A DNA stretch of 64,000 nucleotides, from assembly GCF_009931435.1 (NCBI RefSeq), contig NZ_CP043414.1; one strand, 5' to 3'. Positions within the stretch are counted from its first letter, which is position 1. Every line of letters starts with the position of its first letter. The position numbers were made by a program, and so were the translations under genes. The notes below the pieces were generated by a model, which ran no database searches, was not told where the DNA came from, and was given only the letters and a program-made list of their open reading frames with translations. The stretch comes from Escherichia coli (GTDB lineage Bacteria; Pseudomonadota; Gammaproteobacteria; Enterobacterales; Enterobacteriaceae). Below are positions 51,522-55,269 of the stretch, one piece after another.

Positions 51522-53063
<1,542 letters not shown>

Positions 53064-53188
53064 AAAAGTTTGATGCTCAAAGAATTAAACTTCGTAATGA
53101 ATTACGTGTTCACTCTTGAGACTTGGTATTCATTTTTCGTCTTGCGACGTTAAGAATCCGTATCTTCGAGTGCCCACACAGATTGTCT

Positions 53189-53208
53189 GATAAATTGTTA
53201 AAGAGCAG
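53189..53208 (-). promoter_or_regulatory. rRNA leader boxA antitermination element
   Basis: Minus-strand TGCTCTTTAACAATTTATCA. Confidence 0.8.
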
Positions 53209-53229
53209 TTGCGACGCGGCTTTCAACTC

Positions 53230-53390
53230 ACTGTCGCGAGGTGGCGTATATTACGCTTTCCTCTTTCAGAGTCAACCCTGAATTTCAGGATTTTTCTCTT
53301 CAACCGAACCGGCTGTTTGTGTGAAGTGATTCACATCCGCCGTGTCGATGGAGGCGCATTATAGGGAGTTCTCCGCAGGCCGCAATAGAA
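53230..53390 (-). promoter_or_regulatory. rRNA operon tandem promoters P1 and P2
   Basis: P1 minus-strand TTGCGG-N16-TATAAT-GCGCC (-10 at 53358-53363) with AT-rich UP region upstream; P2 TTGACT-N17-TAATAT near 53235-53270. Confidence 0.8.
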
Positions 53391-53556
53391 AAATTGCAGA
53401 AAAATGACTGACTGCTGCATTCCCCAGCAAAACCCCGCTTTATACCTTTTTACGCACAGAGTTATCCACAATCATCAATGTAATTTCTGTATTTTTCCCA
53501 CGGTAAACACTGTCAAAATTGTGATCACCATTGAAAGAGAAAAATTCGCGAGCGTT

Positions 53557-53573
53557 GCGCAAACGTTTTCGTT
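53557..53573 (+). promoter_or_regulatory. PurR operator at the purHD promoter
   Basis: gcgcaaacgttttcgt matches the PUR box ACGCAAACGTTTTCNT. Confidence 0.75.
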
Positions 53574-53679
53574 ACAATGCGGGCGAAAAATAAGGATGCC
53601 CCGTTAGGGGCGTTAGCTGAGTTTTTCGCGAAAAATTCAGCTAACGCTCTCTGTAATAGTCAAATCCAGGGGATTTACC

Positions 53680-55269
53680 ATGCAACAACGTCGTCCAGTC
53701 CGCCGCGCTCTGCTCAGTGTTTCTGACAAAGCCGGTATCGTCGAATTCGCCCAGGCACTTTCCGCACGCGGTGTGGAGCTGCTGTCTACAGGGGGCACTG
53801 CTCGTCTGTTAGCAGAAAAGGGTCTGCCGGTAACCGAAGTTTCCGATTACACCGGTTTCCCGGAGATGATGGATGGACGCGTGAAGACCCTGCATCCAAA
53901 AGTGCATGGTGGCATTCTGGGCCGTCGCGGCCAGGACGATGCCGTTATGGAAGAACATCAGATCCAACCTATCGATATGGTGGTTGTTAACCTCTATCCG
54001 TTCGCCCAGACCGTGGCCCGTGAAGGTTGCTCTCTGGAAGATGCGGTTGAGAACATCGATATCGGTGGTCCAACGATGGTGCGCTCCGCCGCCAAGAACC
54101 ATAAAGATGTCGCAATCGTGGTGAAGAGCAGCGACTACGACGCCATTATTAAAGAGATGGATGCCAACGAAGGATCGCTGACGCTTGCAACCCGTTTCGA
54201 TCTCGCTATCAAAGCCTTCGAACACACCGCCGCCTACGACAGCATGATTGCCAACTACTTCGGCAGCATGGTTCCGGCTTATCACGGTGAAAGCAAAGAG
54301 GCCGCCGGTCGCTTCCCGCGTACGCTGAACCTGAACTTCATTAAGAAGCAGGATATGCGCTACGGCGAGAACAGCCACCAGCAGGCTGCCTTCTATATAG
54401 AAGAGAATGTGAAAGAAGCCTCCGTTGCCACCGCAACCCAGGTTCAGGGTAAAGCCCTCTCTTATAACAACATCGCCGATACCGATGCGGCGCTGGAGTG
54501 CGTGAAAGAGTTCGCCGAGCCGGCATGTGTGATTGTGAAGCACGCCAACCCTTGCGGTGTGGCTATCGGCAATTCCATTCTTGATGCTTACGATCGCGCG
54601 TATAAAACCGACCCCACCTCGGCGTTCGGCGGCATTATCGCCTTTAACCGCGAGCTGGATGCTGAAACCGCACAGGCCATCATTTCTCGTCAGTTTGTCG
54701 AAGTGATTATTGCGCCGTCCGCCAGCGAAGAAGCGTTGAAAATCACCGCCGCTAAACAGAACGTACGTGTCCTGACCTGCGGTCAGTGGGCCGAGCGTGT
54801 TCCAGGCCTTGATTTCAAACGCGTGAACGGTGGTCTGCTGGTTCAGGATCGCGATCTGGGGATGGTCGGTGCGGAAGAACTGCGCGTCGTCACCAAACGT
54901 CAGCCGACTGAACAGGAACTGCGTGATGCACTGTTCTGCTGGAAAGTGGCGAAGTTCGTGAAATCCAACGCTATCGTCTATGCCAAAAACAATATGACCA
55001 TCGGTATTGGCGCGGGCCAGATGAGCCGCGTGTACTCCGCGAAAATCGCCGGTATTAAAGCTGCCGATGAAGGCCTGGAAGTGAAAGGTTCCTCGATGGC
55101 TTCTGACGCGTTCTTCCCGTTCCGCGACGGTATTGATGCCGCCGCCGCTGCGGGCGTGACCTGCGTAATCCAGCCTGGCGGTTCTATCCGTGATGACGAA
55201 GTAATTGCCGCCGCCGACGAGCACGGTATTGCGATGCTCTTCACCGACATGCGCCACTTCCGCCATTAA
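53680..55269 (+). CDS. purH: bifunctional AICAR transformylase / IMP cyclohydrolase
   Basis: 529 aa, [27 protein letters not shown]. Confidence 0.98.

Follow-up and report, generated by a model that had tools for sequence, protein, structure and literature searches.

Upstream of purH, the first gene of the purHD operon of Escherichia coli, lies a 38-nucleotide (nt) palindrome that, judging from its conservation and covariation, is very probably a selected RNA structure of the sense strand in the leader of the purHD messenger RNA (mRNA). It was analyzed in a 64,000-nt stretch of contig NZ_CP043414.1 (RefSeq assembly GCF_009931435.1), hereafter the window, whose numbering is used throughout. 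As RNA, the palindrome forms a hairpin, designated P2, which is a conserved stem-loop of the 5′ untranslated region (5′-UTR), a familiar kind of element, absent from family databases. By the covariation described below, its helix is under selection for pairing, while its apex is free in sequence and length. We give about an even chance to a role of P2 in the post-transcriptional control of mRNA stability or translation. The explanation favored overall, held with somewhat less than even confidence, is a conserved leader stem-loop that would act in cis as an entry site for RNase III.

Architecture of the purHD leader

The repeat finder delimited two 19-nt arms on the + strand (53610-53628 and 53629-53647), which are 95% complementary and separated by a spacer of 0 nt. 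Their sole mismatch, G53621·T53636, becomes a G·U wobble in RNA. The original prediction of a 38-base-pair (bp) palindrome at 53610-53647 with one mismatched pair was therefore exact in all its coordinates and details. The palindrome is the longest closely spaced inverted repeat of the window, which contains only three weaker others; we estimate that chance alone would produce a 19-nt arm with no more than one mismatch about 1e-4 times per 64 kb. Folded alone as RNA, P2 adopts, as had been anticipated, a 17-bp stem capped by a CGCG loop, with an energy of -22.5 kcal/mol. Its pairing probability within the full leader is ~1.0, and the fold of the whole leader has a z-score of -5.4 against 200 shuffles.

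The untranslated leader measures roughly 95 nt, all of its elements being described here on the + strand. It begins with an A-rich 5′ tail, GAAAAAUAAGGAU (53585-53597), predicted to be unpaired or weakly paired and not kept in sequence in relatives. The short gcccc-gtta-ggggc hairpin reported ahead of the palindrome is indeed present. This GC-rich 5-bp hairpin, GCCCC-GUUA-GGGGC (P1, 53598-53611), was recovered by fold prediction and RNAalifold, has an energy of -11.5 kcal/mol in isolation and has G53610 and C53611 in common with P2. Its 3′ arm carries a GGG (53607-53609), located 5′ of P2, that can pair either with the CCC of P1 or with a UCU directly 3′ of P2 (53648-53650), identified from alignment columns. 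The second pairing (G53609·U53648, G53608-C53649 and G53607·U53650) brings P2 to ~20 bp. The P1 state and the extended P2 exclude each other; 2.4 kcal/mol separates them in the E. coli ensemble (-38.6 versus -41.0), in which pairing of the GGG with the 3′ flank is predicted at P = 0.6-0.8. The pyrimidine-rich, partly boxA-like 3′ flank of P2 reads GCUCUCUGUAAUA (53646-53658). Between the end of P2 and the purH ATG, a distance of 32 nt, a third hairpin, P3 (AAAUCC-AGG-GGAUUU, 53662-53676), is predicted by folding with P ~0.98. It carries the purH Shine-Dalgarno (SD) sequence AGGGGA (53668-53673), divided between the loop and the 3′ arm.

The element stands where it had been placed, between the PurR box and promoter and the purH ATG, in what we take for the 5′ leader. 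The PurR operator (pur box) of the purHD promoter, GCGCAAACGTTTTCGT (53557-53572, +), was read from the sequence, and the published purH-purD PurR site, ACGAAAACGTTTGCGC, is its reverse complement (PMC3159470). The -10 hexamer TACAAT follows directly 3′ of the box (53573-53578, +) and implies a transcription start site (TSS) at about 53585-53586. The purH coding sequence, 529 amino acids, occupies 53680-55269 (+) according to both the open reading frame list and the RefSeq annotation. Because the element lies downstream of a conserved promoter, the sense-strand RNA is the likely molecule on which it acts.

Conservation and covariation of the hairpin

Loci containing purH were gathered from 80 species. 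Besides E. coli, 35 Enterobacterales species carry the element between the conserved PurR box and -10 and the ATG, including members of Escherichia, Citrobacter, Kluyvera, Enterobacter, Cedecea, Erwinia, Pantoea, Brenneria, Serratia, Rahnella and Yersinia. The PurR box is kept in all Enterobacterales loci examined, and the -10 is found as TA(C/A/G)AAT at an unchanged spacing from it in ~40 species. The outer arms of P2, GCGUUAGCUGA.../...UCAGCUAACGC, are almost invariant across the species carrying it, whereas the apex that they enclose can be as small as a 4-nt loop or as large as ~70 nt and does not align from one genus to another. In ~19 sampled species from ~10 named genera, P2 measures exactly 38 nt (39 in one) with differing loops. 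In the long forms, the apex inserts are usually self-complementary (28 bp in Yersinia L036, 21 bp in L017 and 31 pairs in L020), giving duplexes of 21-34 pairs. Read across these genera, the E. coli hairpin is a trimmed, minimal version of what would be an older Enterobacterales leader hairpin, and the length of the duplex seems to matter while the sequence of its tip does not.

Pairing was examined on the 14 pairs of the basal stem in 36 species (24 distinct sequences), the apex being swapped for GAAA and the register being set by conserved anchors and by maximizing pairs. With this register, 87% of the cells were paired, versus 21-35% when the partner was slid by 1-3 columns. Changes on both sides were found at 10 of the 14 pairs, and none of 500 shuffles attained any of the observed measures. 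The double changes include pair 7, which turns from G-C to C-G, U-A or U·G, pairs 3 and 10, from G-C to A-U, and pair 8, from C-G to A-U. An untrimmed MAFFT alignment of 34 sequences analyzed with RNAalifold independently recovered both hairpins and showed 13 of 17 pairs changed on both sides; here P1 has variable loops and some both-side changes, such as GCCUC/GAGGU in L013. Conservation of both arms with compensatory changes in the relatives within the Enterobacteriaceae, the check proposed with the original prediction, thus turned out positive, and it supports the reading as an RNA structure.

Sequence conservation extends to the base of the helix and its flanks. The UCU at 53648-53650 is 100% conserved in the 34 species of the alignment while several stem positions vary, and the GGG at 53607-53609 is conserved at 90% or more. 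In most species, ensemble prediction pairs the GGG preferentially with the UCU flank. In 13 of the 24 distinct sequences, pair 8 (C53617-G53640 in E. coli) is mismatched, as C·C or C·U. P3 is kept only within the Enterobacteriaceae, CCAAAGCCAAGGGAUAAAACC taking its place in other families. An enterobacterial covariance model (R1) found no match in the leaders of Morganellaceae, Budvicia, Edwardsiella and Pasteurellaceae.

Within E. coli, a 341-nt intergenic query matched 5419 of 5426 complete genomes. Its 57-nt core, which contains the element, is identical in 5381 of these 5419 genomes (99.3%), the whole query being more variable. K-12 has four differences from the window in the upstream spacer and is identical to it from the PurR box as far as the ATG. 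These data bear on a neutral origin, in which a passive hairpin would be kept by palindrome-favoring mutation or by hitch-hiking with the promoter. Template-switch mutation could indeed generate palindromic apices. However, the arms are kept with compensatory changes in at least four Enterobacterales families while the apex turns over completely, and the core is nearly fixed next to a more polymorphic spacer, so that we regard a neutral hairpin as very improbable.

The same comparison bears on an element acting as DNA, either as a dimeric transcription-factor site or as a cruciform absorbing supercoiling from the divergent rrnE promoters ~250 bp away. The E. coli palindrome is complete through its center, TTCGCGAA, without a spacer, and it lies between two promoters, one of which is very strong. 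Wobble statistics, moreover, do not clearly tell the strands apart: the basal-stem test counted 17 G·U cells versus 12 A·C cells, weakly favoring the sense strand, whose fold is the more stable one in 25 of 33 distinct sequences. However, a dimeric DNA-binding site needs a fixed half-site spacing and is disfavored because the gap between half-sites here varies from 0 to ~70 bp among genera. In close relatives the center has other bases (for example TTGCGA, TAGCCAAG and TACGCAAG) and is no palindrome. PurR, RbsR and PhoP, which are given as regulators of purHD, bind other motifs. Finally, the hairpin persists in Vibrionaceae, whose purH loci showed no rRNA operon within the sequence covered, up to 1.2 kb upstream. 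Of the three functions suggested earlier, the dimeric protein binding site loses ground accordingly, a leader stabilizer and an RNase III target staying candidates. Of all the explanations considered, an element acting as DNA is the one we hold least probable.

Outside the Enterobacterales, a long hairpin is also present in the purH leaders of Vibrionaceae, Aeromonas, Oceanisphaera and Tolumonas, at 28-50 nt from the start codon. This Vibrionaceae-type hairpin, AGGU[AC]UUUNNNAA ... UUNNNAAAUAUCU, was identified in L039, L043-L056, L061, L066, L068 and L072 (Vibrionaceae), in L050 and L053 (Aeromonas) and in L057. In Vibrionaceae its arms covary, as seen in the pairs UUUGGCAA/UUGCCAAA, UUUACCAA/UUGGCAAA, UUUCCCAA/UUGGAAAA and UUUCUCAA/UUGAAAAA. 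The stem sequence differs from that of the enterobacterial P2, model R1 does not detect it, and it has no Rfam match. Nevertheless, the hairpin of Vibrionaceae and Aeromonas has a GG...UCU-type base, and the Vibrionaceae 3′ flank AAAUAUCUUUAU recalls the enterobacterial UAACGCUCUUUAU. Position, architecture and this similar flank suggest a common ancestry of the two hairpins. The purH leaders of Pasteurellaceae are short and contain no hairpin.

P2 is single-copy: a blastn search with word size 11 placed it twice in each of the 5419 genomes, corresponding to both strands of one locus, and neither pattern search nor the covariance model found a second copy in the window. Like the REP, BIME and ERIC repeats, it is an imperfect palindrome in an enterobacterial intergenic region. 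Unlike them, it occupies a fixed position at one gene across families without any REP or ERIC sequence, and membership of these repeat families was ruled out by its single copy per genome.

Searches of catalogues and literature complete this picture. An Rfam 15 cmscan of window positions 53000-54000 at E ≤ 10 gave on the palindrome only a spurious mir-725 match (23.8 bits, versus a gathering score of 76), and a scan of 14 orthologous or analogous purH loci at E ≤ 1 gave none on the leader. A ZTP (pfl) riboswitch, likewise without an Rfam match in the window or these 14 loci, was rejected. A 2024 survey of new noncoding RNAs names purH only for an unrelated Thioalkalivibrio motif. No mention of a purHD hairpin was found in the literature searched, which did not extend to the original purHD papers. 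Flannigan et al. (Mol Microbiol 1990, 4:381) are said to have located the 5′ end of the purHD mRNA by primer extension and to have remarked on two mutually exclusive dyad symmetries, which presumably match P1 and P2. Dyad symmetry in this leader was thus probably noted ~35 years ago. The statement that the palindrome is not a described element holds for RNA families, since no Rfam family matches it, and would have to be qualified by this early remark.

Several side observations were made in the compared leaders. The long apices of Yersinia, Serratia, Rahnella and Pantoea (L023, L026 and L030-L036) contain recurrent YUCUCUAUAUAGAGAR palindromes, sometimes two in tandem. In Photorhabdus caribbeanensis (L037), an ERIC-like repeat (..GGGAACGAATCCCTGGGAGCATAGCGAACTATGTGACCAGGGTGAGTG..) lies ~120 nt upstream of purH, and the leader grows to ~250 nt. 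Some leaders (L015, L020, L024, L025, L027, L028, L030, L032 and L036) contain, in the last ~25-40 nt before the purH ATG, a lineage-specific upstream open reading frame (uORF) seen only in Cedecea and Erwinia, where it encodes MRTKAKG*, and in Yersinia (...NNCDSKAKG*). Its UAA stop falls within the SD and spacer of purH (GGA-UAA-AACC-AUG), an arrangement that suggests termination-reinitiation coupling. E. coli and its close relatives lack this KAKG*-type uORF.

Candidate functions of the helix

In the mechanism that we favor, P2 would act in cis on the fate of the purHD mRNA after PurR-controlled initiation. Its duplex of about two turns would be an entry site for the double-strand-specific RNase III, and cleavage there would remove the triphosphorylated 5′ end together with P1. 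Such cleavage would set the stability and/or the translation of the purHD mRNA independently of the promoter, and the alternative between P1 and the GGG:UCU pairing could tune the amount of full-length duplex. RNase III entry is favored because a duplex of about two turns nears the ~22 bp accommodated by the RNase III dimer (PMC6212723), and because long hairpins with free tips are typical of leaders processed by this enzyme. Compared with a duplex size of ~20-22 bp, the E. coli helix reaches 20 bp with its 17 bp and three-pair extension, and the long forms attain or exceed this size. The known RNase III-processed leaders (rnc, pnp, metY-nusA and lambda N) likewise have a long, regular 5′-leader duplex upstream of the ribosome-binding site, of a length near ~22 bp, in which the duplex is kept and the sequence of the tip is free. 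Unlike in these leaders, cleavage of P2 is only proposed, the E. coli helix has 17 bp, or 20 with a G·U-rich extension, and the sequence at the base of the stem is more conserved than expected for a mostly sequence-blind nuclease. We consider RNase III possible, and on balance doubtful, as the effector at P2.

Several points weigh against this explanation. First, it is we who infer that RNase III, or any factor, acts at P2, and the purHD TSS was taken from the promoter and not from mapping; the TSS supplements of PMC3415461 hold no purH entry. Secondly, an RNase III site reported at 4207874 and labeled 'purH-rrsE, rRNA' (Gordon et al. 2017) falls, by our own arithmetic, at window position ~53338, beside rrnE P1 and not on the palindrome. 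Thirdly, a helix of 17-20 bp is at the lower limit for RNase III. Fourthly, the discrimination between strands is weak, some long forms folding better as antisense. Lastly, the near-invariance of the arms exceeds what a sequence-blind nuclease needs, which hints at a sequence-specific partner.

With respect to the RNase III data, site 4207874 maps ~273 nt upstream of mature 16S ribosomal RNA (rRNA). The classical 16S RNase III site lies at -115, and the offset may reflect the resolution of the coverage-based method. Because purH is repressed in rich medium, the RNase III data sets are uninformative for P2 either way. The p19 double-stranded RNA study PMC7373196 has no purH entry.

The hint of a sequence-specific partner corresponds to an operator, in which a protein or a small RNA would read either the single-stranded UCU or the helix base, with its GUUA/UAAC and the frequent mismatch of pair 8 (C·C or C·U). 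From Escherichia to Yersinia, the sequence of the basal arms is conserved far beyond the need for pairing, U4, U5, A6 and their partners being near-invariant; the 1×1 mismatch recurs at the same position, and the three flank nucleotides are invariant. We know of no candidate partner for the helix base or the UCU flank. On the other hand, the element occurs at a single locus and is not a recognizable regulon motif, the Vibrionaceae stem differs in sequence, the CsrA-type GGA ahead of P1 is not kept, and pairing of the flank with the SD is not consistently predicted. An operator is consequently improbable in our estimation.

Two further candidates were set aside. For a CsrA-regulated leader, the SD-proximal GGA is kept, but the upstream AAGGAUG becomes AAAGAUG, GAAGAUG or other variants in close relatives. 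For anti-SD pairing of the P1 CCCC or the CUCU flank with the GGGG of the SD, ensemble predictions were inconsistent between species; by eye, one possible coordinated change was seen, the flank CUCUC going with the SD AGGGG and CUCUU with AAGGG.

The pairing alternatives at the base of P2 also bear on transcription. P2 and the following pyrimidine- or U-rich tract could be a weak conditional terminator or a pause hairpin, with P1 as the anti-terminating fold, since P1 would deprive the base of P2 of two to five of its pairing partners. The mutual exclusion of P1 and the extended base within 2.4 kcal/mol is in line with such an attenuator, as is the U-rich tract found right after the stem in many relatives (UCUUUAUUG, UCUUAUUUAUUU, UCUUUUAUUG, and UCUUUAUUUU in Vibrio). 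The 1990 description is also said to have emphasized two mutually exclusive hairpins. The stem itself is that of a terminator, with 17 bp, a GC-rich base (GCG/CGC) and a 4-nt loop, although stems of 17 to more than 30 bp are unusually long for terminators. In E. coli, by contrast, the eight bases 3′ of the stem (TCTCTGTA / UCUCUGUA) contain only four T (U), some relatives being U-richer, the tract UCUCUGUAA has four U in nine, and the terminator scan makes no call on the + strand. The earlier view that P2, lacking a following U-run, is not a classical terminator is upheld by these results. Neither a conserved leader peptide or other sensor nor ligand-type conserved unpaired nucleotides were found in the leaders, and the accessible part of the Term-seq supplements of PMC7815308 lists no purH 3′ end. 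We therefore assign a low probability, comparable to that of an operator, to a terminator or pause hairpin.

Related candidates were also set aside. The scan flagged a minus-strand terminator, GCCCCTAACGGGGC followed by ATCCTTATTT, whose U-tract is interrupted and not kept in relatives and which has nothing obvious to terminate. For a leader-peptide attenuator or uORF, E. coli offers only AUG-CCC-CGU-UAG, which lacks SD spacing and is not kept beyond close relatives.

The 3′ flank raises another possibility, in which P2 would be a boxB-like hairpin followed by a boxA-like CGCUCU..., as in the rrn leader, loading NusB, NusE (S10) and SuhB. Such a module would either render polymerase Rho-resistant across the leader or cause suhB-like translational repression and Rho termination, coupling purine synthesis to rRNA transcription. 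The boxA consensus is GYUCUUUAANA, in which C4 is critical (PMC5725501). Counting the free N position as a match, the E. coli sequence GCUCUCUGUAA scores 8/11 at register 0 and 9/11 at register +2, and relatives score 7-10/11. The critical C4 is present in all flanks scored, and in nearly all of 36 species GCUCU begins the sequence at or after the 3′ end of P2. The flank reads GCUCUUUA in Serratia and Rahnella and CGCUCUUA in Erwinia and Pantoea, the latter being the lambda boxA. The Brenneria flank, GUUCUUUAAUG, scores 10/11, a value that only 6 of 63989 window positions reach. In the same window, rrnE has a hairpin followed after 3-4 nt by GCUCUUUAACA, the genuine rrnE boxA being GCTCTTTAACA (53206-53196, minus strand), ~400 bp from the purH flank, a proximity that would confound any ChIP signal for Nus factors at purH. 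A precedent for boxA-dependent control of an mRNA is provided by suhB (PMC5725501), and a perfect boxA, GCTCTTTAATA, lies upstream of E. coli prs, a nucleotide-synthesis gene (phosphoribosyl pyrophosphate synthetase) with a predicted Nus-factor site (PMC5725501 supplementary data).

These likenesses are offset by the divergence of the E. coli motif, which fits seven of the ten specified boxA positions. Position 6 is a C (U6 being replaced by C or G), and T6C belongs to the pair of changes in an inactive suhB boxA mutant (PMC5725501). Scores of 8-9/11 arise at about 1e-3 to 6e-3 of window positions. A survey of perfect GYTCTTTAANA motifs within 50 bp of the start codon in 940 gamma-proteobacterial genomes lists suhB, prs, rpsJ and others, but not purH (PMC5725501). 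In addition, the P2 stem sequesters three of the boxA nucleotides (CGC), and the Vibrionaceae keep only UCUUUAU. The purH leader therefore resembles the rrn boxB-boxA-boxC region and the suhB 5′-UTR in having a hairpin followed by a GCUCU(U)(U)A-type sequence with C4 present, and differs from the rrn antitermination region in that boxC is missing, three of the ten specified boxA positions are off and the motif is partly paired. We consider a Nus module quite unlikely, slightly more so than a terminator or an operator. The same low standing is given to a broader proposal, in which P2, the GGG/UCU pairing and the boxA-like flank would together form an unrecognized purHD riboregulator, read by the Nus complex or another trans-acting factor in Enterobacterales and, in diverged form, in Vibrionales and Aeromonadales. 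If true, this riboregulator would couple an enzyme consuming 5-aminoimidazole-4-carboxamide ribotide (AICAR ribotide, ZMP) to rRNA transcription or nucleotide status and would be a gamma-proteobacterial counterpart of the ZTP riboswitch.

Two further known systems were compared with the leader. Like the ompA-type 5′-UTR stabilizer, it has stable stem-loops, with single-stranded AU-rich segments between hairpins and SD. However, protection of the ompA type depends on a hairpin placed right at the 5′ terminus, and because ~12 unpaired nt precede P1 in the purH leader, protection against 5′-end-dependent RNase E would be weak. Like the ZTP riboswitch, it is a structured leader before a gene whose product consumes ZMP. 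Unlike in this riboswitch, the conserved nucleotides of P2 lie in a regular helix and not in junctions or loops, the apex is dispensable, and there is no match in sequence or structure.

The purHD locus and significance

According to the RefSeq annotation and the identical K-12 locus, purH lies to the right of the element, and the rrnE 16S rRNA gene to its left on the opposite strand. The -10 of the rrnE P1 promoter, TATAAT, is at 53363-53358 (minus strand). Between this promoter and the purH PurR box, a perfect consensus DnaA box, TTATCCACA (53462-53470, +), is present. This 9-mer is single-copy in the window, and one exact copy of unchanged orientation precedes purH in ~40 Enterobacterales species (L001-L042, L059, L060 and L062), among them Photorhabdus, Xenorhabdus, Budvicia and Rosenbergiella. 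Such retention suggests that a DnaA input to purHD or to rrnE is conserved. To our knowledge, regulation of purHD by DnaA has not been reported. For guaBA, DnaA is given as a regulator in the table of PMC10100675. On the rrn P1-P2 leader, the Rfam family Ysr197 ('Yersinia sRNA 197') matched below its gathering score (window 53185-53418 and L036 56-301, both on the minus strand), and this family appears to model the leader of an rRNA operon.

In E. coli, purHD is described as being controlled at transcription initiation, its tabulated regulators being PurR, RbsR and PhoP (PMC10100675). P2 is small and single-copy, and it is found in the best-studied bacterium. It is missing from Rfam, and its annotation would improve 5′-UTR maps. 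If it sets only a basal mRNA stability, it would be one more ordinary leader hairpin. As it stands, P2 is a modest lead to a PurR-independent control of purHD. A leader helix kept by compensatory evolution across the order, together with its positional counterpart in Vibrionaceae, argues for an extra layer of control after initiation at the ZMP-consuming step, the same step that is controlled by the ZTP riboswitch in many other bacteria.

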